Source of the DNA: Ignicoccus pacificus DSM 13166
GTDB lineage: Archaea; Thermoproteota; Thermoprotei_A; Sulfolobales; Ignicoccaceae
Direction of reading: 5' to 3'
NCBI GenBank assembly: GCA_025340205.1
Contig: CP006868.1
Span: 810,001 to 842,000 of the forward strand
DNA length: 32,000 nucleotides
The notes under the pieces were generated by a model that made no database searches, was not told the DNA's origin, and was given only the letters and a program-made list of their open reading frames with translations. Shown here in pieces: positions 752-29,170 of the stretch. Numbering within the stretch: position 1 is the stretch's first letter; every line of letters begins with the position of its first letter. The position numbers were made by a program, and so were the translations under genes.

Positions 752-1761
752 ATATTGTCCTTGTTTTCTCTTACCTTTACCACAACTCTCCTACCAACCT
801 CCCCACGTACCTTAACGACTGTCATGACTACGTCCTTACGAGGTAGGGGTACTGCCAACCACTCTCCTTTGAGCAACCCCCTTCCTATTATCTCTACTTT
901 TACTCTTTCTCCCTTCTTATAGATCTCCGGGATCTTAGGAGCTTGGTGCATGCCCCATTCTTCCATACTCCATTTCAATCGAACCCCTAGCTCCTTCTCC
1001 GTTTTCTCTATCCATTTCCAAAATTCCTCCCAGCTCATTTCCTTTACACCTTTAACTTTCCTTCCTCTTTTGTGTACAACATACTTCTGTACTGTGAACG
1101 GTGGCCATCTCTTGCCTACTCCTATCTCTTTGCCCCATAATATTACCTCCTTCACATCTTCTTCGTTTATTCCAGGTAACAACACTGGTGTTAGATGAAC
1201 ATCTACGTCAGTTTCTTTAACTAGTTTTTCGATAACCTCGATGACCTTCTTCACATCAAAGTCTTGTCTACCGGCTAAGTACTTCGCCTTTACTGGATCT
1301 AATGTGTCTATGCTTAGATTTATTCTATCTAGGCCGGCCTCCGCTAATTCAAACGCTATCTCCTCGTTCAGTCTAACTCCGTGTGTTTCCAATGCCACGC
1401 TTTTAACACCATCGATCTCCTTCATACTCTTTACGACATTAGTAATGTGGGGATGTTCTAGGGGATCCCCGACGCCATCGAGCAATATTTCCACGTCTCC
1501 ACCCTTGAACTTTACAACGTCCGCTACCCACCTCTTAAGCCATTCTAAGTCATCGACAATGTAATCAACCCATCTCTTTCTTGAACAAGGGCCGGCGTCC
1601 ACGCTACAGAAGATACAACAAAGAGCACAGATGCTGGTTACCCTAACCTGAAGTACGTTCGTTCCCCTATCTATTATACCGAACGCTGTAGTACCTATTA
1701 GAGGCCATGGTTCTCTGACGCTTAACGTTACTCTGGGATGCTCAAATGCTCTCGGCATCAT
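733..1761 (-). CDS. radical SAM domain protein with a beta-rich C-terminal (TRAM/PRC-like) extension
   Basis: 342-aa ORF. A CX3CX2C cluster motif sits in ...VTSICALCCIFCSVD..., followed by a GGDVEILLDGVGDPL glycine-rich segment typical of the radical SAM core. The C-terminal region ERVKVEIIGRG...VVKVRENKDNIYLASP looks like a small beta-barrel. Its 3' end overlaps the convergent aspartate kinase gene by 19 nt. Confidence 0.75.
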   Translation of the reverse strand: MMPRAFEHPRVTLSVREPWPLIGTTAFGIIDRGTNVLQVRVTSICALCCIFCSVDAGPCSRKRWVDYIVDDLEWLKRWVADVVKFKGGDVEILLDGVGDPLEHPHITNVVKSMKEIDGVKSVALETHGVRLNEEIAFELAEAGLDRINLSIDTLDPVKAKYLAGRQDFDVKKVIEVIEKLVKETDVDVHLTPVLLPGINEEDVKEVILWGKEIGVGKRWPPFTVQKYVVHKRGRKVKGVKEMSWEEFWKWIEKTEKELGVRLKWSMEEWGMHQAPKIPEIYKKGERVKVEIIGRGLLKGEWLAVPLPRKDVVMTVVKVRGEVGRRVVVKVRENKDNIYLASP

Positions 1762-1800
1762 TTATTCCCCTCCCATCTCATGAAAGCTGGGAAATATTGG

Positions 1801-3279
1801 ATGAGGACGTCTATAGCGTTAGCCTTACTCGTCGGACTCGTGTTCGCTCAAACAAATCCCATAGTGACGATAATAAGGACGAACATCCAACAACAAGTAC
1901 TATATGCCCTAGCACAGAATTACTGTGGCGTAAAGGTTAGGTGGGAAAGTTTTTACTATACCGTAACGAACATGAAGAGCGCCCTAGATCAAGCGAAATC
2001 ATCTTACGATAACTTAGTCAAGCTCCTAAAGCCAGGAGGTGCCTTATATAATACTATAATGGCATGGAACCAGAACTATATAAATGGCTTTAATGGTATG
2101 AAGAATTACGTAACGACTTATTTGATAAACTTGCGCGGCTTGGTTTCATCCCTTAACGCAGCTTCCGCTTACTTACAAGGCGTATACGGCCAAACTACCA
2201 GAACCCAATTGATTAGTAGCTACGCCAATCAACTACTCGGAATCTACAACAACGTCTGGAATTACCTCCAATCTTACAAGGCTCGGGAACTCATGGTCGA
2301 CTTAACGCGAGCCACACAATTGATTCACTATAAGGAGACTTTAGCTGTCCTGAACAAGACTTCTATAACGCCAGCCATACTATCTTTGATTACATCTAAG
2401 GACATACTTTCCGTAAACCCTTCCGCGAGTAATGCTTGGCTCAGTTTCGCCGTTTGTAGTACAGACTACGCTAACAATACCTACAAAGAATGTTTCGCAA
2501 ACCTTAATGGTACTTCAACATATGGACCTATTTATGTGGGTTTCAATAGTAATGTAAATTACAATCTATATAAACTATATTACGCACCTAATCTAGGAGC
2601 CTCATGCCCCATAAACGTTGGTCAAATTCACACATACATGGTGAACCTCTACAACAACTACGCCACTATATACAACTACTATACAACCAATGTAATGCCG
2701 TGGGAAGTCAGACTCGAGCAAGCGCAAAACTTACTTCAAGGTATAATCTCAACTATGCTTAATGATCTCTTATCTCCCATAACGTCATCAATAAACATAC
2801 TAAAGGGAAGCACTACCTCCAATATCGTTAACAGCTGCTTAAGTTTGACTAAAACAACGCCTTCGGTAAACATCCAACAATTAGACTTGAGGAACCCCAC
2901 CCAAGTGGCTAGCTTCTTGAACTCCGTAGCCAACAACTTGAATAACGCGTATGACAACCTTTACAACGCGATCAACTGTATAGAATTCTACTTACCATCC
3001 CTACAGAACAGCGCCCAGATCTATCTTAACGCGTTAGCGAATAGATTCAAACAACTCAGCGGGGGGGTAGATATAGAAACGTGGGCCCAAGAGCATGGAA
3101 TTCAATGCACATATAACCCTACCACCTCACCGGTCACAGTCCTGAAAACAATTATCAACACCTACTATTCTCTCCTTGATCCTAACAGCCCCACTAGTTT
3201 CGTAAGGAACATCAACGTAACGACTCCGGCCGGCGTTCTGTCCCCTAGAGCTTTAAGCGAAGGAGGTCTTTGTGGCTAG
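1801..3279 (+). CDS. secreted Asn/Tyr/Thr-rich protein of unknown function (probable glycosylated cell-surface protein)
   Basis: Long ORF 1738-3279. The ATG at 1801 gives a classical signal peptide, MRTSIALALLVGLVFAQTNP. Upstream in-frame ATGs at 1738 and 1780 would overlap or crowd the divergent radical SAM start at 1761. A TTTATT box at 1761-1766 lies about 35 nt upstream of 1801. The protein has many N-x-S/T sequons, no internal TM segment, and no recognisable catalytic motif. Confidence 0.65.
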   Translation: MRTSIALALLVGLVFAQTNPIVTIIRTNIQQQVLYALAQNYCGVKVRWESFYYTVTNMKSALDQAKSSYDNLVKLLKPGGALYNTIMAWNQNYINGFNGMKNYVTTYLINLRGLVSSLNAASAYLQGVYGQTTRTQLISSYANQLLGIYNNVWNYLQSYKARELMVDLTRATQLIHYKETLAVLNKTSITPAILSLITSKDILSVNPSASNAWLSFAVCSTDYANNTYKECFANLNGTSTYGPIYVGFNSNVNYNLYKLYYAPNLGASCPINVGQIHTYMVNLYNNYATIYNYYTTNVMPWEVRLEQAQNLLQGIISTMLNDLLSPITSSINILKGSTTSNIVNSCLSLTKTTPSVNIQQLDLRNPTQVASFLNSVANNLNNAYDNLYNAINCIEFYLPSLQNSAQIYLNALANRFKQLSGGVDIETWAQEHGIQCTYNPTTSPVTVLKTIINTYYSLLDPNSPTSFVRNINVTTPAGVLSPRALSEGGLCG

Positions 3280-3642
3280 CCGGGGACAGACCCGGGGTAG
3301 GGCCGGAGGGTCGCCCCTCCTCCCCCCGAGGGATCTCGGGGCCCGAAACGGGGCACTAACGCGGGGGCCAGTAACTCCCCGGAGGCTTCGCCCGGAGACC
3401 CCTCGGGGGACCGGGGGGTTCCGATGATCCTCGCCCCACGGGGCCCACGGTGGCGGAGCCTCCGCCGGAGGGCGGAGGTTAACCGCCTTAACCGGGGGAA
3501 CCAGGTCAGGCCCGGAAGGGAGCAGCCTAACCCCGGCCGTGGGCGTTCGTGGGTCAACGGGGTGAGGGACCTCCCGGAGAACCCCCGAGGGGGAGCCCTC
3601 ACGGGGCACCGGGCGAGGTCCCGGGGAGGTCCCGGGGTCCAC
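3280..3642 (+). ncRNA. signal recognition particle RNA (archaeal 7S / SRP RNA)
   Basis: This is a very G+C-rich island in an A+T-leaning region. The + strand carries the universal helix-8 motif ACCAGGTCAGGCCCGGAAGGGAGCAGCC (about 3500-3527; compare E. coli 4.5S ACCAGGUCAGGUCCGGAAGGAAGCAGCC). A helix-6-like hairpin, CCTCCGCC-GGAG-GGCGGAGG, has a GNAR loop (about 3459-3478). Two small 5' hairpins (CCCCGAG-GGAT-CTCGGGG and CCCG-AAA-CGGG) are consistent with Alu-domain helices 3/4. Long-range helix-5 complementarity is visible by eye (GCCCACGG/CCGTGGGC, CTTCGCCCGG/CCGGGCGAGG), and the 5' CCGGGGAC pairs with the 3' GTCCCGG. A T-run (CGTTTTATC, 3648-3656) follows. The ends are approximate, +/-10 nt. 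Confidence 0.88.
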
Positions 3643-3689
3643 ACCATCTCGTTTTATCTCCTCCCCCTATTACTAACCTCGAAGGAAGG

Positions 3690-4484
3690 ATGCTGGATCT
3701 ATTGGATGGATTAATCAAAATAACGCAGACCTCAAGCTTGGTCTTGGGTGGTGCGATAGCATGCTTTATAGCTCCTAACTGTAAGAATTTGTTCTTACTT
3801 ACTATCGCCCTCTTCCTAGACATAGCTGGAACGACTATTCTTAATATGGTTATAGATAAAGACATTGACTCGTTAATGAAGCGCACACAGAGTAGACCCA
3901 TACCTTCTAGAAGAGTTTCGTCGACAATAGCACTAGTGATAGGTATTATTATGACCCTTTCTGGTATTCTCGTCGCATTTGAGATAAATACGCTAACGGG
4001 GGTCGCAGCTTTCTTAGGGGCATTCATCGATGCTGTTCTCTATTCTATGCTACTAAAGAGAAGAACTTGGTTGAGTCCTCTAATAGGTGGAATAGCGGGT
4101 GCGATGCCATTCTATGGAGGTTGGGTAGCTGGGGGTGGAGATCCTATCCTAGGCTTAGTTTATATACCGATAATAACCTTTTGGTCTTGCTCTCATATAT
4201 GGGCACTTAACGCGTCCTTCTACGACGATTACATGAGAGCGAGGATTCCGACTCTTGTGAGTGAATTTAAGGGTTCGTTCAAGTACATCTCTGCCTCGGT
4301 TCTACTTATAGCCTCTGTACTTACCTCGTTTTTCATTGGTGGCCTATCCTTATTGTTAATTGCAATAACTGGACTGTACTTGTATTTTATGTTAAAGAAT
4401 AACTTTAAGCATTCTTTTAAAATAGCAACGATATGGTTAGTTTTGTTCTATATACTTTTACTACTTCATAAACTATATCTCTAA
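3690..4484 (+). CDS. ctaB: protoheme IX farnesyltransferase (heme O synthase), UbiA prenyltransferase family
   Basis: The motif NMVIDKDIDSLMKRTQSRPIPSRRVS matches the heme O synthase signature N-x3-D-x-D-I-D-x2-M-x-R-T-x2-RP. The protein is polytopic, with about 8-9 hydrophobic helices. I moved the start to the ATG at 3690 (MLDLLDGLIKITQ...), because the first 47 codons of the tracked ORF (3549) lie inside the SRP RNA and are Pro/Gly/Arg junk. Confidence 0.8.
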   Translation: MLDLLDGLIKITQTSSLVLGGAIACFIAPNCKNLFLLTIALFLDIAGTTILNMVIDKDIDSLMKRTQSRPIPSRRVSSTIALVIGIIMTLSGILVAFEINTLTGVAAFLGAFIDAVLYSMLLKRRTWLSPLIGGIAGAMPFYGGWVAGGGDPILGLVYIPIITFWSCSHIWALNASFYDDYMRARIPTLVSEFKGSFKYISASVLLIASVLTSFFIGGLSLLLIAITGLYLYFMLKNNFKHSFKIATIWLVLFYILLLLHKLYL

Positions 4485-17838: not shown

Positions 17839-18231
17839 ATGTGTGGACCTCTATACCCGGCAGAGGCTGTTGTGATAATACAGTCAAAACATGATGATCA
17901 CTTCTGGATGGTAACTTCTGGTGGCGAGGTCAAGAAGATGACATTTGATGACGTAATAAAGGAGGTCGAAGGATGCTATAATAGTCTAAAGGTATCGTTC
18001 TGTCCAGAAAAAGGGAAGATGTTAATATGGAGTAGAAACGGAAGGGCTGCAATAGGAGTCATCAACGCCGATCTATTCGACCCTCATCTATGGTGTAACT
18101 TGGAGAGATTTGCTGCATTGGTTAACTCAAGGCTACCAGAACCCATCTTACCCTCAGACATCGAGGCTGCGAAAGCTGAGATTGCTTGGAGTTTAGGCTC
18201 CAACAAACCCGAGATCCCTATCGAAGCTTGA
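17839..18231 (+). CDS. hypothetical protein (130 aa), possibly co-transcribed with the downstream AOR gene
   Basis: Clean ATG ORF with a 40-nt gap to the AOR gene on the same strand. I recognise no motif (MCGPLYPAEAVVIIQSKHDDHFWMVTSGGEVKK...). Confidence 0.5.
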   Translation: MCGPLYPAEAVVIIQSKHDDHFWMVTSGGEVKKMTFDDVIKEVEGCYNSLKVSFCPEKGKMLIWSRNGRAAIGVINADLFDPHLWCNLERFAALVNSRLPEPILPSDIEAAKAEIAWSLGSNKPEIPIEA

Positions 18232-18271: not shown

Positions 18272-20071
18272 ATGAATATTAAAGTTCTAAGGATAAATTT
18301 GAGTAAAGAGAAGTTTGACAAGATAACGCTTGATGAAAGGACTTCAAGACTCTTCATGGGAGGGAAAGGTATTTGTACATACTTGATCTATAAGTATTCT
18401 TCTCCACTAATAGATCCCTTCTCCAAGGATAACGTAGCGGTTATCGCTAGCGGAGCTCTTGCAGGCTATGCTCCGGGATCGGGAAAGACTTGTTTTGGTG
18501 CTGTCTCACCCTTAACGGGCCTTATTCACGACTCTTATGCCGGCGAAGTACTGGGTCCAAAGCTCAAAATGGCCGGCTTCGACGCGATAATGATAGAGGG
18601 TAAGGCATCTGAACCCAAGTATTTGTTAATAGAAAACGAAAACTATGAGTTATTAGATGCAACCGAACTATGGGGACGTAATATAAAGGAGACAACAGAT
18701 GTCCTTAAGGAACGTCATGGAAGAAAGGCCAGTGTGGCTGCCATAGGTCCCGCAGCTGAAAATAGAGTTAGATATGCCTCAATAATAGTGGATTACCATA
18801 GAGCTGCAGGAAGGGGTGGAGTAGGCGCCGTTTGGGGTTCAAAGGGCTTAAAGGCAATAGTGGTAAAGGGGTATTCACCCTTACCAGAACCCGCTAAAGG
18901 TAGGGAAGCGTGGAGGGAACTTGTGAAGAAACTTTACGATAGATTAGGTAGGACCTCTAAGTTCCGTAAATATGGGACGAACAACGGTCTTGTAACGGCT
19001 GATATGCTAGGTATGGCACCCCACTACAACTTCAGATTACCCCATCGCGGTGATGTAGGTGAGCTCAAAGGTGATATAATCATTCAGAAGGCCACTGATA
19101 TTCATAGCCTTGACCCTTCTACCTATGGTTACATGTGTCCCGTGAAGTGTCCCAAAGTAATAAACGGAATTAAGAGCGAATATGAACACTTAGGAATGCT
19201 TGGGGCAGCTGATGGAATATACAAGCTTGATGACGTCTTGAAGGCGATAGACCTTGTTGACAAACTAGGTATTGATAGCATTTCGGCTGGCAACGTAATT
19301 GGATGGTTAATGGAGTCTGTTGAGAAAGGTCTGATCGAAGGACCTAGGTGGGGTGATGGGGAGGCACAAAGAAGGCTCCTAGAAATGATAGCTAAGAGAC
19401 AAGGTATTGGGGCGATACTGGCGGAGGGCGTTAAGAGAGCTTCGGAGATCTTAAACTTTGGGAAGGAGTGGGCGGTTCATGTCAAAGGTCTTGAGGCCCC
19501 TGCTTGGGATCCCAGAGGCCTACTCGGATTCGGCTTAAGCTACGCTACTGCGGATGTAGGTGCTAGCCACTTGAGAGGTTGGCCATCGCCTCACAGACCA
19601 CCGAATAGACCTGTTGTGGAAGCTATCGACTCGCTAATAGCAGGAAGAGATCAAACAAGTGTGACGGATCATATGGGGACTTGTGTATTCCTACCTTATA
19701 CACTTGGAGATTACGCGGCATTGCTTAACATAGTGTATGCTTGGGAGGTCGACGTAGAAGAGCTCAAGATGCTCTCATGGAGGACGGAGAGCTTAGCGAG
19801 ACTTTGGACACTCAGAGCTGGATACAGAAGAGGTGACGATACCGTCCCGCCTAGATGGATGGAACCATCACCTTCTGGACCAGCTAAGGGCCTCAAAGCC
19901 TTCTTAGACTGGGATGATTTAGAGAGGGGCAAAACAGAATACTATAAGAGGAGAGGTTGGAGTCCCAGACATGGTATACCTCTACCTTCTACACTTAGGA
20001 AATTGGAACTGGATTTCGCTATGAAGGATGCAGAGTACTTGATCGAGCACCTTGAACCAGAACTACTTTGA
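18272..20071 (+). CDS. aor: aldehyde:ferredoxin oxidoreductase family (tungstopterin) enzyme
   Basis: 599 aa. The N-terminal domain (KVLRINLSKEKF...GGKGICTYLIY) and the core segments GRGGVGAVWGSKGLKAIVV, EAPAWDPRG and ATADVGASHLRG are characteristic of the AOR family. The Fe-S region reads GYMCPVKCPKV plus the distal MGTCVFL. Confidence 0.85.
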   Translation: MNIKVLRINLSKEKFDKITLDERTSRLFMGGKGICTYLIYKYSSPLIDPFSKDNVAVIASGALAGYAPGSGKTCFGAVSPLTGLIHDSYAGEVLGPKLKMAGFDAIMIEGKASEPKYLLIENENYELLDATELWGRNIKETTDVLKERHGRKASVAAIGPAAENRVRYASIIVDYHRAAGRGGVGAVWGSKGLKAIVVKGYSPLPEPAKGREAWRELVKKLYDRLGRTSKFRKYGTNNGLVTADMLGMAPHYNFRLPHRGDVGELKGDIIIQKATDIHSLDPSTYGYMCPVKCPKVINGIKSEYEHLGMLGAADGIYKLDDVLKAIDLVDKLGIDSISAGNVIGWLMESVEKGLIEGPRWGDGEAQRRLLEMIAKRQGIGAILAEGVKRASEILNFGKEWAVHVKGLEAPAWDPRGLLGFGLSYATADVGASHLRGWPSPHRPPNRPVVEAIDSLIAGRDQTSVTDHMGTCVFLPYTLGDYAALLNIVYAWEVDVEELKMLSWRTESLARLWTLRAGYRRGDDTVPPRWMEPSPSGPAKGLKAFLDWDDLERGKTEYYKRRGWSPRHGIPLPSTLRKLELDFAMKDAEYLIEHLEPELL

Positions 20072-20098
20072 TAACACCGACCCCGTGTCTTCCTGTGT

Positions 20099-20508
20099 AT
20101 CCCACTTCTTTCCCACACATGGAGGGTCCTCCTTAGTTACAACTCAGCTTGGAGTGGTATTACATTGATACTCTCACCAGGTTTGTTTCCTCTGGAAGGG
20201 CTCTGACTATGATACCCCTCTGAAGTTTTGTATAATTTAGTTTTTCAAGAGATGGTTTTCTAGAAATCAATACAAAAAGAAAGTTACAATTATCAACATT
20301 GGAATCTGGGTTAAGGAACTAAGATAAAGATAATTGAAAGAATCTAAGAGGCAGCATCAAGGATGAGAGGTCTTCTTGTTGGAGTTGAAAGAAGGTAGTG
20401 ATGATATTGTAATAATACATCTGAGAGGAGAGCCTCAGAAAAACATCTAACATCGCAATCACAAAGTTGAGTAGGAATAAAGTGGGAACCAGTGGAAATA
20501 AGGGGGTC
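20099..20508. other. candidate chromosomal replication origin (ORB-like inverted repeats flanking an A+T-rich core)
   Basis: This is the largest ORF-free gap in the window. The boxes are: + strand CCAGTGGAAATAAGGGGG (20489-20506); tandem degenerate copy GAGTAGGAATAAAGTGGG (20469-20486); inverted copy GTGTGGGAAAGAAGTGGG (reverse complement of 20101-20118, 14/18 identical to the 20469 copy); weaker copy GGAGTTGAAAGAAGG (20381-20395); and dyad TTCCAGAGGAAAC (reverse complement within 20185-20200). The stretch at about 20221-20345 between them is A+T-rich. Confidence 0.45.
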
Positions 20509-20573
20509 TATAATATTTGAGTAGCACATAGCCTTAAATGGCACATAATGAAGATATTTAATAGGTGGCGTAA

Positions 20574-21017
20574 GTGGACGAGGAAGTAAAGCGTGAAGTG
20601 GTTGAAGAGACCCAAGAGGAAGTCATCGAGCATCTTGAGAAACTCTATGAAGACGATGAGATAGTGGTCTTGGCAGCTCCTGACGATGCTGAGCTAGAGA
20701 GGCTAATACTGAATATTTTAAAAGAAAAGAGAATGAAGTTTAAGGAACTGAAAGAGGCATTTTCAGCGACTGCAGGTGAGGATAGGCTGAGAAGGGCTTT
20801 GTTGAAGCTTATGGAAGAGGGCAGAGTATACGAACTCCCTGATGGTTCATATACAGCAAACATCGAGGATCTAGAAGCTTTCAGAGAAGCTGCTTTACCC
20901 GAGGCCGTCGAAGCAGCTGATGAGTTCGAGGAGGCAATAGAAGAAATCGAAGAAGAAAACGAGGAGTTCGAAGATTTCGAGGATATAGAAGATATTGAAG
21001 ATTTAGATGAACTCTAA
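20574..21017 (+). CDS. small winged-helix-like protein with an extremely acidic C-terminal tail
   Basis: GTG start with a TATA-like ATATTTAATA at 20553-20562. The central segment LERLILNILKEKRMKFKELKEAFSATAGEDRLRRALLKLMEEGRVYELPDGSY has the helix-turn-helix plus beta-wing pattern of wH domains. The last 45 aa are almost entirely D/E/I/F (EFEEAIEEIEEENEEFEDFEDIEDIEDLDEL). Confidence 0.6.
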   Translation: MDEEVKREVVEETQEEVIEHLEKLYEDDEIVVLAAPDDAELERLILNILKEKRMKFKELKEAFSATAGEDRLRRALLKLMEEGRVYELPDGSYTANIEDLEAFREAALPEAVEAADEFEEAIEEIEEENEEFEDFEDIEDIEDLDEL

Positions 21018-21022
21018 AGTAC

Positions 21023-21418
21023 TCATTCTTCCATACTCTTAATTTCTTCAAGTCTCCTCTTGATAATCGATGCTAGCTCTTCTCCATAATATTTCTTTAT
21101 CTCCTCTATAAGGTCCTCAACGACTCTTTCGTGTTGTTTAAGTAACCGTAGAACTTCCCCGAACTCTTTACTTTCAAAGAACTTCTTCAAGTTCTCCGTA
21201 GGGTCTGGATTTTCAAATGAGCTGAACTTGAATTTATTTTCAGCTACCCAGACCATCTTCCTTAGTTCTGATACATTCCTTGGTTCTAATTCGTCTTGGT
21301 GTTTGGCTAAGATGACGTTGAATATTTGCCTCAAGAAGTCAGGCTTCCTAGTCATAGTCGTTCCCCATACAGGCCTCCTTTCATCCCTATTGAGGTCTAG
21401 CCCGGATTCTTCGGACAT
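21023..21418 (-). CDS. hypothetical protein (131 aa, predicted helical)
   Basis: ATG ORF, same strand as the small AbrB-like gene and 54 nt downstream of it. It has no recognisable motif and a charged helical C-terminus. Confidence 0.5.
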   Translation of the reverse strand: MSEESGLDLNRDERRPVWGTTMTRKPDFLRQIFNVILAKHQDELEPRNVSELRKMVWVAENKFKFSSFENPDPTENLKKFFESKEFGEVLRLLKQHERVVEDLIEEIKKYYGEELASIIKRRLEEIKSMEE

Positions 21419-21811: not shown

Positions 21812-23182
21812 TTATTTAGAACGACGTTTGTACTGAAAAGTTTCATTAAGCTTTTTAGTCTGTAGCTCTTCTCTTAGTTTAGACATACAAGAGTATAGGA
21901 GTTTGAGCGCTTTGGGATGAGTGACTGGAGGTTTATGGGATTTCATCTCCTCATCGTATTCCTCTGGAGGAATGCAAGGTATGCATGAGAGACCGAGTTC
22001 CTTACATGCTTCCATAACGGCTTTGAAGCTTTCACTATCAGGTTTCAGATATACGGCAATTATCTTGTACTTATGAGCGTGCGCTTTCAAGAACCTTCTT
22101 ACTCTTTCTCTTATTACGTCTACGTAGAGTTTCTTTATCTCTTCAGTTTCTTCCCACTCGGGCCAATCATAGCTATTAAATGGATAATCGTTAGCGAATT
22201 CTTCCGGAATGACGCCAGGCGAACTAATGGCAACTAGGTGCGTTCTCCTCCTCATACCGACCCTTCTTAGAACATTGAGAATAGCTTTCCAAGTTTTGCT
22301 CTTATAATATGGTTTCCTGTAGGAGCAAGGAACGAAGAGCAAGACATCCTTTTTCGGAGGCTCATAGAAGTTAGTGAGGTATTCCATCCAGACTTCGTAA
22401 TAAGGATGTAAGAGGGTCTCCTCATTAGCTCCAATAATTTTCTTCCTTAGATATTTGGGAAACTTAGGTTTAAAGGCGAAGTTATTGAACTCTATTTGTA
22501 CTCTTGGGTCCCGAAGGTAGGGTGTGATTACTTCTATGAATTCGTTGTAAGGTAATGGGTGCCATTCACCTCTAATCCATTTTATGAAGAGTGGACTCTC
22601 GGAGTGAGGATAAGTATTTATTATGACTACCTCATCGGAGTACTTGAGTGCAATTTCCATAGTCTTTGGAAACAACTTTTTCCAATTGGGTACCGGAGGA
22701 TTTACGAGGACATATGTTTTCACCTTTACGCCTAGGTTACGTAGCATCAGCGTAATTGAGATAAACTTTTCTACAGTCATCGCGGGGTACTTACCCAACT
22801 CCTTTAACGCTTCGTTGTCAGCAACTTCCAGCCCTAACGCTACTATCAACTCATAGGATCTATTGAGAAATGGCTGAAGCCTCTCATATGTAATATAATC
22901 TGGTAGACTCTCTACCTGGAGCTCAACCGTGCACGTTCTATCAATTTTCTCAGCTAACCAAAGTTGAAAATACCTAGGAAACTGAGATTCATCAAATATG
23001 CTTCCTGAAGTATATATCTTCAACCTCTTTGGAGGTGGGGAGAGAGCCTTTTCTACCTTCCTCATAAGATTTTCTATACTATCCTTCCCGGTCCTCTTCC
23101 CCCATCCACACATAACACAACGTCCCCAGGAACACTTGCCTACGTTGGCGACGACACTCCTCTCTCTTACGTGCCAGCACAT
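21812..23182 (-). CDS. fusion protein: RaSEA-like radical SAM domain (N-terminal) plus ArcS-type DUF5591 domain (C-terminal); probable archaeosine biosynthesis enzyme
   Basis: The N-terminus has GKCSWGRCVMCGW (a Cys cluster of the TIGR01210/RaSEA type) and a TIM-barrel-like core. The C-terminal half contains VPCSYRKPYYKSKTW (nt 22289-22333), matching the ArcS motif PC-x3-KPY-x2-S-x2-H except for the last position (W). I chose the ATG at 23182 (MCWHVRERS...) because a TATA-like CTTTATTTCC lies about 30 nt upstream. The tracked start at 23269 adds 29 poorly plausible codons. Confidence 0.6.
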   Translation of the reverse strand: MCWHVRERSVVANVGKCSWGRCVMCGWGKRTGKDSIENLMRKVEKALSPPPKRLKIYTSGSIFDESQFPRYFQLWLAEKIDRTCTVELQVESLPDYITYERLQPFLNRSYELIVALGLEVADNEALKELGKYPAMTVEKFISITLMLRNLGVKVKTYVLVNPPVPNWKKLFPKTMEIALKYSDEVVIINTYPHSESPLFIKWIRGEWHPLPYNEFIEVITPYLRDPRVQIEFNNFAFKPKFPKYLRKKIIGANEETLLHPYYEVWMEYLTNFYEPPKKDVLLFVPCSYRKPYYKSKTWKAILNVLRRVGMRRRTHLVAISSPGVIPEEFANDYPFNSYDWPEWEETEEIKKLYVDVIRERVRRFLKAHAHKYKIIAVYLKPDSESFKAVMEACKELGLSCIPCIPPEEYDEEMKSHKPPVTHPKALKLLYSCMSKLREELQTKKLNETFQYKRRSK

Positions 23183-23236
23183 AATATTTTGCCCTAACCC
23201 CCTTTCCCCGGGGAAATAAAGGCTGAGGTGGGACGT

Positions 23237-23458
23237 ATGGACCCAAAGAAAATCCCATTGAAATCTCAAGATATTTTGATAATAATGATAGTGGTAATAG
23301 TGATACTATGGACGTTTGGGCTAAATGTTATACCGTATACAATTCTAACTTGGATAACCACGGCATTTATGGTATTCATGATGACACTAGCTTTGATAGC
23401 TCCTACGGGCGATGAGGAAGAAGAAAAAGCTGAAAAAGGCGAAGAGAAGGCCCCATAA
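23237..23458 (+). CDS. possible small membrane protein (two TM helices, acidic tail)
   Basis: MDPKKIPLKSQDILIIMIVVIVILWTFGLNVIPYTILTWITTAFMVFMMTLALIAP then GDEEEEKAEKGEEKAP. The hydrophobic pattern is plausible. However, the ORF ends 1 nt before tRNA-Pro and I recognise no family. The alternative start is GTG 23228. Confidence 0.3.
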   Translation: MDPKKIPLKSQDILIIMIVVIVILWTFGLNVIPYTILTWITTAFMVFMMTLALIAPTGDEEEEKAEKGEEKAP

Positions 23459-23459
23459 T

Positions 23460-23533
23460 GGGGCCGTCGTCTAGCTTGGTAGGATGCGGGGCTTGGGCCC
23501 CCGTGGTCCGGGGTTCAAATCCCCGCGGCCCCA
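23460..23533 (+). tRNA. tRNA-Pro (anticodon UGG)
   Basis: The cloverleaf was read by hand. Acceptor GGGGCCG/CGGCCCC. D arm GTCT-AGCTTGGT-AGGA. Anticodon stem CGGGG/CCCCG with loop CTTGGGC (anticodon TGG). Variable loop TGGTC. T arm CGGGG-TTCAAAT-CCCCG. Discriminator A. No intron, and CCA is not encoded. Confidence 0.93.
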
Positions 23534-23697
23534 CTAGATATTCGTAACTACCCTCTTCTGAGGTAATAGTAAAAACAGATAAGTAGAAAATTGGTTCGGT
23601 GAAATACATAGATGCTTGCAAAATTAAACTAGGAAACGACACATGCAGCAGATACTCTATACGTAGAAGTTTGAATCCTAGGTTCTAAAAACAAGAC

Positions 23698-26274: not shown

Positions 26275-27018
26275 ATGGTTACTATAGTCTACTATCCGGG
26301 AGATATAGCCGCTAAAGGGACGGCGGAGATATTGGAAAGAGAGTATTCAATAAAAGTGACTCCAATACCCAATGATTCACCCTTCCATGATTTCTCCGAT
26401 ATCGATGACGACGTCATAATAGTCTTGTCCAGGCATAAGAGCTCTAAGGAGATTAAGAGTTTCACCGTTCATCATACAGGCAACATTGGTCCAACTAATG
26501 AGCTAGGCGGAAAACCAAGAGAGGTAAGCATCGCCTTTCCATCAATAGCTTGTTCCTTACTTAGATCTCTTAAAGATGCGGCAAGGGATCGTGAAGATTA
26601 CGAGGTAGCATATGAAGCAACACACCATGGACCTACAGTAAATAAGGCGATAATATTCATTGAAATAGGGTCTAGCGAAAAGCAATGGGGTGACCCCAAG
26701 AACCATTATGTGCTGGCAAAAGCGGTGGCGCGTTACAAGGATTTTGGATGTAGTGGCATAAGGAGCATATGGATAGGAGGTCCTCATTATTCTTCGAGAG
26801 CATCTAAGAGATGTTTTAGCGATGAAGCGTGTTTCGGTCACATAGTAGCGAAATATAATGTTCCCTATCTTGATGATGAGATGCTGAAGAAGATCGTTGA
26901 GAAAAGTATGGAGAAGATAGAGAGGGCATATTTAGAGAAGAAGTCGATGAAATCAGAACAACGTAAGCATGTGAGGAACTTGTTAGAGGAATGGGGGATA
27001 GAAGTAGTTAGCGTCTAA
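26275..27018 (+). CDS. dtdA: D-aminoacyl-tRNA deacylase, archaeal type (DTD2)
   Basis: VLSRHKSSKEIKSFTVHHTGN and YEATHHGP match the tRNA_deacylase (DTD2) family signatures as I recall them. The ATG at 26275 is preceded by GGTGA (26264-26268). The tracked GTG at 26269 is two codons upstream. Confidence 0.7.
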   Translation: MVTIVYYPGDIAAKGTAEILEREYSIKVTPIPNDSPFHDFSDIDDDVIIVLSRHKSSKEIKSFTVHHTGNIGPTNELGGKPREVSIAFPSIACSLLRSLKDAARDREDYEVAYEATHHGPTVNKAIIFIEIGSSEKQWGDPKNHYVLAKAVARYKDFGCSGIRSIWIGGPHYSSRASKRCFSDEACFGHIVAKYNVPYLDDEMLKKIVEKSMEKIERAYLEKKSMKSEQRKHVRNLLEEWGIEVVSV

Positions 27019-28114
27019 GAACTCTTTCCACCATCCTTGTGTAATATGAAGGTAGATCCTCTCCGCGAGCAGCTCTAATATAAAGATGTTTTAAGACGTT
27101 AGGATTCATCATATCTAACTCAGAAGAGTTTTCTGCTATCATTAGGACGTCTAGAATGGCTTCGTGAAGTCTTGAAAGTGAGAGCTTCGGAAAGAGCCTT
27201 ACCTCTATCATGACCTTATCTAATGAATTAATGAATGAAGATATATCACCCTCTAAGAATGAGAATAACCAATCGGAGCGCGGTAGCGAAGACTTCCATC
27301 TAGCTATCGCCGGACCGAAGTTCCACCTTTGCATGCCTTCGAGTATCTCTATGTTGTTGGCCTTTACTACACCCATAGAAACATCTCTTGCTTTTACTTC
27401 ATTGAATTCCAAAAGCTCATGAGACAAACTTTCAAAGGTATGAAGCGAGAGATCCTTGCAAGGCTCGGCTTCTTGAGGTACGCCTGAGAATAATCTGCTA
27501 AGGACTTCATACCATGATGAATATGAATAAGGCGCCCAAGCATCTGGTATGGCTGCCCAAGAGTTAGAGGCGAAGTCGATCCAAGCCCTCACTCTATATT
27601 CCTTCCATCCACAACATGGTGAATTAGAATACTTCGAGATTAAGAAAGGAGAAGCAACGTTCAATGCATTTAGTACCATTGGTAAATCCTCCTTCCCGAC
27701 GTCTATCCATATCTGTGTTGATGCCATAGTTGCAATCTTATGGTGATTGTAACCGTACCATTGCAATAAACGATAGTGACCCCTTGGAGTAGCGTTCTTC
27801 AGATACCATCTAATTCCTGGAGGCGGGAGATAGGCGACGTCCAAGCTGGTATAACCCAACCCTTCTAGCCATAAATAGAAGTCTTCTGCTCTATTGAGTA
27901 TAGCTTCGAGAGGACCGGGTTCTATCGATACCTCGACAATTGCAGAGGTCGTGTCAGTCTTTACTATCCCAAAATCTTTCTTGAACCCTACAGGTTGTCT
28001 TGAGCAAGGATCTTTGATTATGCTATCTTCACTAGTTAACGTTTCTTCCCATATGCTTCGTGTAACTAAGTTACCATTCTTAGTAATTAATGTCTCTATT
28101 TCTAGGCCTAACAT
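27008..28114 (-). CDS. glutamate-cysteine ligase family 2 (GCS2/YbdK-like) carboxylate-amine ligase homologue
   Basis: 368 aa, which is YbdK-like in size. The N-terminal strand is LGLEIE (GxExE). MASTQIWIDV, ASPFLISKYSNSPCCGWKEYRVRAW (compare the family pattern SPF...G...S-x-R) and MIEVRLFP (compare the family pattern E-x-R-x-x-D/P) are arranged as in the GCS2 fold. The assignment rests on motif order only. Confidence 0.4.
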   Translation of the reverse strand: MLGLEIETLITKNGNLVTRSIWEETLTSEDSIIKDPCSRQPVGFKKDFGIVKTDTTSAIVEVSIEPGPLEAILNRAEDFYLWLEGLGYTSLDVAYLPPPGIRWYLKNATPRGHYRLLQWYGYNHHKIATMASTQIWIDVGKEDLPMVLNALNVASPFLISKYSNSPCCGWKEYRVRAWIDFASNSWAAIPDAWAPYSYSSWYEVLSRLFSGVPQEAEPCKDLSLHTFESLSHELLEFNEVKARDVSMGVVKANNIEILEGMQRWNFGPAIARWKSSLPRSDWLFSFLEGDISSFINSLDKVMIEVRLFPKLSLSRLHEAILDVLMIAENSSELDMMNPNVLKHLYIRAARGEDLPSYYTRMVERVLRR

Positions 28115-28719: not shown

Positions 28720-28761
28720 CCACTTAACACCTTAACCATTACCAACCAGTACAAGTATAGC

Positions 28762-28802
28762 AATGCTATTAATGCTATTGTCCAGAATAAAATTAATGCT
28801 AT
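28762..28802. repeat. short direct repeats (AATGCTATT x2 in tandem, plus a third TAATGCTAT) in the ubiX upstream region
   Basis: AATGCTATT occurs at 28762-28770 and 28771-28779, and TTAATGCTAT at 28793-28802. These lie 43-83 nt upstream of the ubiX start on the - strand, overlapping where a BRE/TATA element would be expected. Confidence 0.4.
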
Positions 28803-28809
28803 GAACAGC

Positions 28810-29046
28810 TTACGCCTTCTCATTATGCTTTTCCAACCACTTTCTCAGAGTCTCGACGTTCCACTCGTGCTTGGTTTTCCTCCTCTTATCAATGGGGATT
28901 CCCATCTTTAGAGCTTGCTTGAATGTTAGACCAACTTCCTCTAGCTCGGCCTTGCTGAATCCTCTACCGACCTTCAACCTCGGCTTCTTTCCGGCGTCCT
29001 TCCTCAAGATAGGTGTTAGTACCTTAGCGACTGGCCTCTCTTCCAT
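28810..29046 (-). CDS. rpl13e: ribosomal protein L13e
   Basis: 78 aa. PRLKVGRGFSKAELEEVGLTFKQALKMGIPIDKRRKTKH matches the eukaryotic/crenarchaeal L13e core (GRGFS-x-EL...GI-x-D-x-RR). Confidence 0.8.
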   Translation of the reverse strand: MEERPVAKVLTPILRKDAGKKPRLKVGRGFSKAELEEVGLTFKQALKMGIPIDKRRKTKHEWNVETLRKWLEKHNEKA

Positions 29047-29170
29047 TGGATGATCCCCTCCGCTAGGGTTACCAGAAGGATTATAAACAATAATATGGTA
29101 CCATAACTGACATATTAAGATCGAGATTTATTAATTGTAACCGGTTTGGCTCCAAGATGGGTGTGGTATT

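Follow-up and report, generated by a model that had tools for sequence, protein, structure and literature searches.

The question raised by this stretch of DNA is where the chromosome of Ignicoccus pacificus, a hyperthermophilic member of the crenarchaeal order Desulfurococcales, begins its replication. We have analyzed a window of 32 kb (32,000 nt) from strain DSM 13166 (contig CP006868.1, positions 810,001 to 842,000), and all positions given here without an accession or a locus number are those of the window. Its longest non-coding stretch is a gap of 502 bp (20072–20573), between a gene of the AOR family and the gene IPA_04780. An original prediction, made from the sequence, had described this gap as running from the AOR stop codon at 20071 to the next start at 20574, and had suggested that it is a replication origin. 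The coordinates and the list of open reading frames (ORFs) agree with the description: all ORFs inside the gap are mechanical, with 66 amino acids or fewer. The gap has no rival in the window, because the one further apparent gap of that order, about 450 bp (28720–29170), contains the gene for ribosomal protein L13e (28810–29046).

On sequence grounds, we consider it likely that this gap is a chromosomal replication origin of I. pacificus, and that it is an origin of the oriC1 type, based on Orc1-1 and origin recognition boxes (ORBs). The suggestion of an origin is supported in silico by inverted ORBs which agree with the consensus, by an A+T-rich core with a ucm motif, by synteny, and by the identity of the motif with that of Aeropyrum pernix.

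Origin recognition boxes and A+T-rich core

An origin of this type is expected to contain at least two ORBs, each formed by a dyad (TTCCAnnGGAAA), a spacer of about 4–5 nt and a GGGGT G-tract. The ORBs should be inverted around an A+T-rich duplex unwinding element (DUE), and a ucm motif should be located inside the DUE. These elements are found in the gap, as shown in Table 1. The two window boxes have the expected dyad, spacer and G-tract, they are inverted and about 375 bp apart, both G-tracts point outward, and the A+T-rich core between them contains the ucm-type motif. The left ORB is made up of a GTGGGA box, the dyad core CACAGGAA, the G-tract GGGGT and a final GT(A/G). Its outer flank starts 4 nt after the AOR stop codon, while about 65 nt separate the end of the right ORB from the GTG start of the gene downstream.

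Table 1. Coordinates of the features in the gap and of the two genes which border it
Feature	Position	Strand	Remarks
AOR-family gene, 599 aa, left flank	18272–20071	+	Pfam AFOR_N 2.8e-70, AFOR_C 1.2e-92
Left full ORB plus outer flank, AGTGGGATACACAGGAAGACACGGGGTCGGTG	20075–20106	-	Matrix 32.9 bits; counterparts at syntenic left edges
Left full ORB, AGTGGGATACACAGGAAGACACGGGGT	20080–20106	-	G-tract outward, towards AOR
Inner auxiliary G-box of left ORB, ATGTGTGGGAAAGA	20107–20120	-	16-arm consensus
Mini-ORB, dyad only, TTCCAGAGGAAAC, without G-tract	20185–20197	-	16.0 bits with dyad-only matrix; orientation of left ORB
A+T-rich core, candidate DUE	20221–20345	.	GC profile
ucm-type motif, GTTTTGTATAAT, predicted UBP binding site	20225–20236	+	Left end of the most A+T-rich stretch
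Inner auxiliary G-box of right ORB, TTGAGTAGGAATAA	20467–20480	+	Position and consensus as in the 20107–20120 box
Right full ORB, AGTGGGAACCAGTGGAAATAAGGGGGT	20481–20507	+	G-tract outward, towards downstream gene
Right full ORB plus outer flank, AGTGGGAACCAGTGGAAATAAGGGGGTCTATA	20481–20512	+	Matrix 22.4 bits; counterparts at syntenic right edges
IPA_04780, winged-helix protein with long acidic tail, 147 aa, right flank	20574–21017	+	GTG start; context only

The scan with an ORB profile which had been suggested in the original prediction gives a clear result. A 27-nt weight matrix was built from the boxes of other genomes only, leaving out those of the window. It gives 32.9 bits at 20106 on the - strand and 22.4 bits at 20481 on the + strand, against 9.8 bits for the next site of the window on either strand. 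The maximum score in 200 first-order Markov sequences of 32 kb averages 11.3 ± 2.9, with 22.6 as the top value of all. Two inverted high-scoring sites about 375 bp apart within one long gap are far beyond chance. With the same matrix, no site outside the syntenic gaps exceeds about 12 bits, either in the 32-kb window or in some 100 kb of related loci. We have also used a 22-nt matrix based on all 16 boxes of the Ignicoccus lineage, including the two in the window, which exceeds 14 bits at only 2 of 63,958 window positions.

The motif is not restricted to this lineage. The window boxes match the published archaeal ORB consensus CTTCCAGTGGAAACGAAAGGGGT (Pelve et al., as quoted in Table 2 of PMC4153887). 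When positions 20486–20507 are compared by eye with GTTCCAGTGGAAATAAAGGGGT, the published ORB of Methanomassiliicoccales (PMC4153887, Table 2), 19 of the 22 agree. The same motif is common to A. pernix, Pyrococcus and methanogens.

The five strings on which the suggestion of an origin was based are all present where they had been placed, although their role is in part a different one. The string CCAGTGGAAATAAGGGGG is found at 20489–20506 on the + strand, and the dyad TTCCAGAGGAAAC on the - strand scores as a mini-ORB. The string GAGTAGGAATAAAGTGGG (20469–20486, + strand), described as a degenerate tandem copy, is really the inner flank of the right ORB. In the same way, GTGTGGGAAAGAAGTGGG, the reverse complement of 20101–20118, does match the 20469 copy at 14 of 18 positions, but it corresponds to an inner flank and not to the box of the left edge. 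Both inner flanks carry the pattern GTGGGAA-n-AGTGGG. The true left ORB, at 20080–20106 on the - strand, had been overlooked. The "weaker copy" GGAGTTGAAAGAAGG at 20381–20395 should be discarded: the string exists, but it is ignored by the matrix, and it aligns partially in Ignicoccus islandicus and not at all in L004, one of the related loci described below. The argument that an exact 11-mer would be unlikely by chance is weaker than the matrix. The 11-mer CCAGTGGAAAT does occur once in the window, but 37 of 100 shuffled sequences contain at least one match if one mismatch is allowed.

The two arms of the pair match at 19 of 27 positions in I. pacificus. A generic repeat finder run on the gap did not report the pair, because the arms are only identical to this extent, and the pair was recognised only through cross-species alignment.

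Next to the GTGGGA box, most of the 16 aligned ORB arms present a second, GTGGGAA-like box, about 11 nt upstream. The consensus of the inner flank is tGTGGgAaa.aaGTGGGa, and that of the whole arm is tGTGGgAaa.aaGTGGGaT.CAcAGGAAa.g.aGGGGttaGTa. The inner G-boxes are about one helical turn apart in all loci, with the structure GTGGGAA-n4-GTGGGA-n3-dyad-n5-GGGGT. We have found no description of such an extension of the ORBs in the literature examined.

The region between the ORBs is rich in A+T, as had been noted in the original prediction. The GC fraction is 0.37 between the ORBs and 0.335 over 20200–20399, compared with 0.44 in the whole window, and the lowest value for 60 nt in the gap is 0.22, starting at 20223. 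The ucm-type motif is found at this point. The ucm of Sulfolobus, which this motif matches, is ATTATACAAAC (reverse complement GTTTGTATAAT), as deduced from the wild-type and mutated oligonucleotides in PMC12141716. The oriC1 of Saccharolobus solfataricus carries TTTTGTATAAT (PMC8287685, Fig. S1), which is identical to positions 20226–20236 of the window. The exact 10-mer TTTGTATAAT is found only once in the window. A scan for sigma-70 promoters and terminators does not apply to archaea, and it was uninformative.

Conservation in Ignicoccus-like genomes

The original prediction had proposed, as a test, that the boxes should be conserved in the orthologous intergenic gaps. They are: nine loci, including the window, agree in the genes which border the gap and in how the boxes are arranged. 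The other eight are I. islandicus (CP006867.1, locus L001), Ignicoccus hospitalis KIN4/I (CP000816.1, L013), and six contigs from metagenomes or metagenome-assembled genomes (MAGs): L004, L006, L007, L008, L010 and L012. A profile search of genome contigs with the winged-helix protein gave a single MAG locus, L012.

The gap between the AOR-family gene, which borders it in 9 of 9 loci, and the homologue of IPA_04780 has 455–606 bp in the eight other genomes. Each of these gaps has a strong full ORB on the - strand at its left edge and another on the + strand at its right edge. In I. hospitalis, the inverted pair is located at about 26,819 and 27,234 of CP000816.1, and the gap of I. islandicus is near 614 kb of CP006867.1. 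The spacing from ORB to ORB varies between 322 and 428 bp across the loci, and the lowest GC fraction for 60 nt between the ORBs is 0.18–0.30 in the seven other loci for which a GC profile is available. The flanking protein is only about 60–76% identical across the genomes, yet the architecture of the gap is maintained. When the gaps of the window, I. islandicus and L004 are aligned, only short boxes are conserved within a divergent region: mean column identity is 61%, and the invariant columns are clustered in the boxes. The mini-ORB is one of the elements kept in this alignment, as GGTTTGTTTCCTCTGGAA, and it has counterparts in L004 and L007.

The ucm motif is also conserved. An exact TTTTGTATA or TTTGTATAA is found between the ORBs in 8 of the 9 loci. 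Its placement is of two kinds. In four loci (window 20225–20236, L001 9561, L004 9593 and L007 3625) it is found on the + strand, about 110–120 bp inside the left ORB. In four others (L006 3805, L008 3753, L010 3727 and L012 2710) it is on the - strand, about 100–140 bp inside the right ORB; L008 has a second, weaker copy. This mirror-image placement suggests that the origin core has been inverted, or that either half is able to carry the ucm.

The similarity between the two arms differs from genome to genome. The arms share an identical run of more than 40 nt in I. hospitalis (L013, 4487 on the - strand and 4902 on the + strand) and in L012 (2452 and 2852, same strands), and of about 32 nt in I. 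islandicus (L001, 9450 and 9837, same strands). Such identical arms point to concerted evolution, perhaps by gene conversion, which appears to be relaxed in I. pacificus (20106 on the - strand and 20481 on the + strand). To judge from these sequences, the co-evolution of the arms within each genome fits a single protein which reads both of them.

Comparison with known origins and alternative explanations

The closest model is Ori1 of A. pernix, another member of the Desulfurococcales. This origin depends on Orc1-1 (ORC1/Cdc6-1), which binds four ORBs there, and nuclease sensitivity appears in the A+T-rich stretch that separates ORB2 from ORB3. We have reconstructed its 323 bp from Fig. S1 of PMC8287685; about 6 of the 323 bases are missing, so the coordinates are approximate. 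Our 22-nt matrix gives 32.0 bits for ORB1, 26.6 for ORB4, 14.1 for ORB3 and 7.9 for ORB2. The ORB motif is therefore the same as in the Ignicoccus boxes, ORB1 and ORB4 being the best matches. As in Ignicoccus, ORB2 (- strand) and ORB3 (+ strand) are inverted with their G-tracts outward, the region between them is A+T-rich and contains a ucm-like GATACAAAAAC, and the Cdc6/Orc1 genes do not adjoin the origin (PMC5333045). On the other hand, A. pernix has four full ORBs in 323 bp, with about 130 bp between the central pair, whereas Ignicoccus has two full ORBs 322–428 bp apart plus a mini-ORB with only the dyad. Each Ignicoccus ORB has two extra phased inner G-boxes (GTGGGAA-n4-GTGGGA), and the flanking genes are different, as far as can be told. 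Ori1 of A. pernix has been validated by Orc1 binding, P1 nuclease sensitivity, two-dimensional gels and marker frequency, whereas the Ignicoccus locus is a predicted origin.

The oriC1 of Sulfolobus and Saccharolobus also presents inverted ORBs around an A+T-rich DUE which contains a ucm, as in ORB2 and ORB3 of Sulfolobus islandicus. In this species, firing of oriC1 requires each of the two flanking ORBs as well as the ucm, and UBP is a nucleoid protein which binds ucm and contacts MCM. The ucm occurs in origins of both Sulfolobales and Desulfurococcales, and the ubp gene has been reported to be confined to these two orders. The differences are that oriC1 of Sulfolobus directly adjoins orc1-1, while the Ignicoccus window has no initiator gene, and that the ORB3-DUE-ORB2 unit of Sulfolobus has about 130 bp, compared with about 430 bp here. 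Origins which depend on WhiP (oriC3 of Sulfolobus and oriC2 of A. pernix) are also crenarchaeal chromosomal origins which carry a ucm. They differ in having an adjacent whiP gene and in being recognised by WhiP, whereas the Ignicoccus boxes are canonical ORBs. We have rejected a WhiP-dependent origin for this locus: no adjacent gene of the whiP/Cdt1 kind was detected, and the neighbouring protein has a single generic winged-helix domain plus an acidic tail.

A gene for the initiator is usually, but not universally, found next to an origin of this type. The original prediction had noted that neither orc1/cdc6 nor whiP is present in the window. In agreement with this, no member of the Orc1/Cdc6 or Cdt1/WhiP-type families was detected with Pfam and NCBIfam among the 36 ORFs tested, which are nearly all those with at least 90 amino acids outside larger ORFs. 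The proposal of an origin uncoupled from its initiator gene is thus maintained, but this is already known in Desulfurococcales and hence not new. Neither of the Cdc6 genes of A. pernix adjoins its origins, according to a review (PMC5333045). For I. hospitalis KIN4/I, a member of the same genus, Podar et al. 2008 (PMC2614490) report Orc1/Cdc6 genes which lie apart from the predicted origin; that origin, given there without coordinates or motif, may or may not be the locus found here. We have found no coordinates or motifs for an Ignicoccus origin in the literature searched. The other possibility mentioned in the original prediction, an origin served by something unrecognised, has nothing to support it, because the boxes are canonical Orc1 sites.

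By analogy with these systems, initiation may be pictured in the following way. Monomers of Orc1-1 would bind the two full ORBs, and probably the mini-ORB at 20185–20197 as well, with a defined polarity. With the boxes inverted and their G-tracts outward, the bound initiators would be turned towards one another on either side of the A+T-rich core. In the ATP-bound form, Orc1-1 would recruit MCM hexamers to the core, UBP placed on the ucm would help in the activation or exit of MCM, and unwinding and bidirectional synthesis would begin in or beside the A+T-rich stretch. The gene for the initiator would lie at another place on the chromosome, as is the case in A. pernix and I. hospitalis. What can be read directly from the genomes is which sequence elements are present, how they are arranged and conserved, and that they are identical with experimentally defined ORB and ucm motifs. 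We infer from the better known origins that proteins bind at this gap, that MCM is loaded, and that the origin fires in vivo.

Several points weigh against an active origin at this locus or do not support it. The GC skew, which covers 32 kb only, is uninformative: it follows the local orientation of the genes and has no interpretable inflection. The spacing of 322–428 bp between ORBs is about three times the 130 bp or so of S. islandicus and A. pernix. An exact ucm was not found in the gap of I. hospitalis, where degenerate candidates were seen by eye only. Without an initiator gene nearby, one of the classical lines of support is lost. Finally, origins with ORBs are described as dispensable or dormant in some archaea, such as Thermococcus kodakarensis (PMC5663688) and Haloferax mediterranei (PMC4595724).

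The last point leads to an explanation in which the boxes are genuine sites for Orc1-family proteins at a locus which does not fire: it might be a dormant or relic origin, or an operator for the winged-helix gene or for AOR. We regard this as unlikely, although several observations agree with it. A protein bound at the right ORB, so close to the GTG start of the next gene, could affect its promoter; Orc1 paralogues which act as transcription regulators exist, such as Orc1-2 of Sulfolobales (PMC9738581), and orphan ORBs away from origins are found in Methanomassiliicoccales (PMC4153887, Table 2). Nevertheless, it is the whole module which is conserved, with its inverted ORBs, mini-ORB and ucm, and with a core of some 400 bp rich in A+T. 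A simple operator does not need an A+T-rich core or a ucm, and the left ORB is found behind the AOR stop codon, which is no place for a promoter. As for a relic, it would not keep both arms identical, as they are in three genomes.

The inverted arms also allow explanations which do not involve Orc1. The gap might code for a structured non-coding RNA, or correspond to a long 5' leader of the downstream gene, with its ends paired through the inverted repeat. The folding energy has z = -4.1 on the - strand and -1.7 on the + strand, both folds contain an end-to-end stem formed by the inverted boxes, and the fact that the arms co-vary between genomes could, taken alone, mimic compensatory changes. 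However, an RNA stem conserves its pairing, whereas here the arm sequence itself is conserved and is equal to the pan-archaeal ORB. The two best copies in A. pernix (ORB1 and ORB4) share one strand: they are direct repeats and cannot pair. The arms of I. pacificus differ at 8 of 27 positions, which would disrupt a stem, and the interior is poorly conserved except for the short boxes. When the whole window is scanned with Rfam at the gathering thresholds, the gap has no match, and a scan of the gap at E ≤ 10 gives only chance-level matches of 17 bits or less. An RNA is thus very improbable. The same inverted repeats, of some 30–45 bp around about 370 bp of non-coding A+T-rich DNA, are reminiscent of a miniature inverted-repeat transposable element (MITE) or the remnant of another mobile element, the boxes of about 45 bp being its terminal inverted repeats. 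We find this even harder to accept. Neither the window nor the related loci have more than one copy of the element, in nine genomes it is placed between the same two genes, with an interior which has diverged, and no target-site duplication is evident beside 20075 or 20512. In addition, its "repeats" are the ORB motif which is common to A. pernix, Pyrococcus and methanogens.

Neighbouring genes and significance of the locus

The ORF downstream of the gap (20574–21017) matches IPA_04780 of I. pacificus DSM 13166 with 100% identity. Its product has no sequence match in Pfam, NCBIfam or PDB. The AlphaFold model shows a winged-helix core at residues 38–95, with block values of the predicted local distance difference test (pLDDT) of 76–87, and a disordered tail. 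Foldseek only finds generic winged-helix matches, the best compact one being the winged-helix domain of Rpa2 from Pyrococcus abyssi, with a template modelling (TM) score of 0.85 on the target and E = 8e-3, which is not significant. In the family, the core is highly conserved and an acidic tail comes after it. With a profile search, 84 relatives (P0001–P0084) are found across Desulfurococcales, all of them without a Pfam domain; they include proteins from I. hospitalis, Pyrodictium delaneyi (Pyrde_1144) and an Ignisphaera MAG. The homologues of P. delaneyi and of the Ignisphaera MAG have no ORB or ucm within 5 kb, and the family adjoins an ORB gap only in Ignicoccus-like genomes. Since the homologues in other genomes are not near ORBs, the adjacency of IPA_04780 represents synteny at the level of the lineage and is not evidence for a role in the origin. 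We have considered IPA_04780 as a hidden initiator or as UBP, and have rejected it as a sign of a role in the origin: it has no family match, its fold is generic, and its homologues are found away from ORBs.

The two inner G-boxes and the wide spacing raise a further possibility, that of an expanded recognition unit in which the extra phased G-boxes form part of units about 400 bp apart, and in which the origin is organised by a higher-order assembly of Orc1 or by an additional lineage-specific factor. We consider this quite doubtful. The factor could be the winged-helix protein with an acidic tail, whose gene adjoins the origin in all Ignicoccus genomes. The spacing, about three times wider than usual, and the extra inner G-boxes may mean something or nothing.

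On the other side of the gap, the AOR-family protein (18272–20071) scores far below the equivalog cut-offs of NCBIfam (170 bits compared with 868 for AOR, and 59 compared with 1300 for GAPOR). Its substrate class within the family of tungsten oxidoreductases is not assignable from these scores. Two small ORFs which are close to the pair of flanking genes (17839–18231 and 21023–21418) have no significant match in PDB.

Other features of the window should also be mentioned. A gene for the archaeal signal recognition particle (7S) RNA is found at 3399–3592 on the + strand (Rfam RF01857, 130 bits, E = 1e-29, covering model positions 89–286 of 317). It overlaps the ORFs 3253–3642 (- strand), 3276–3647 (- strand) and 3424–3714 (+ strand), and about 45 nt at the beginning of the UbiA-family ORF 3549–4484; these ORFs are probably spurious or start later. 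A tRNA-Pro with anticodon TGG is detected by both Rfam and ARAGORN at 23460–23534 (+ strand). A protein of 485 amino acids (21812–23269, - strand) combines a radical-SAM region, similar to RaSEA (TIGR01210, 9.5e-25, below the cut-off), with a region similar to DUF5591/ArcS, and it may be a fused protein for archaeosine synthesis. The ORFs 1738–3279 (+ strand, 513 amino acids) and 27008–28114 (- strand, 368 amino acids) have no match in Pfam or NCBIfam; conservation of the second one extends to I. islandicus and L004.

In summary, the finding overturns nothing, as origins not linked to their initiator genes were already known in Desulfurococcales. Its interest is that the most probable chromosomal origin of I. 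pacificus is placed to the base pair and, by synteny, those of I. hospitalis (about 26.8–27.3 kb of CP000816.1) and I. islandicus as well. The design formed by ORBs, ucm and DUE, known from Sulfolobus and Aeropyrum, would be extended to a third crenarchaeal lineage, which supports a ucm/UBP module common to Desulfurococcales and Sulfolobales. The locus provides defined oligonucleotides for the binding of Orc1 and UBP, and also a landmark for marker-frequency work on Ignicoccus and Nanoarchaeum. If the expanded recognition unit were true, it would represent a variant architecture of initiation in the host genus of Nanoarchaeum.

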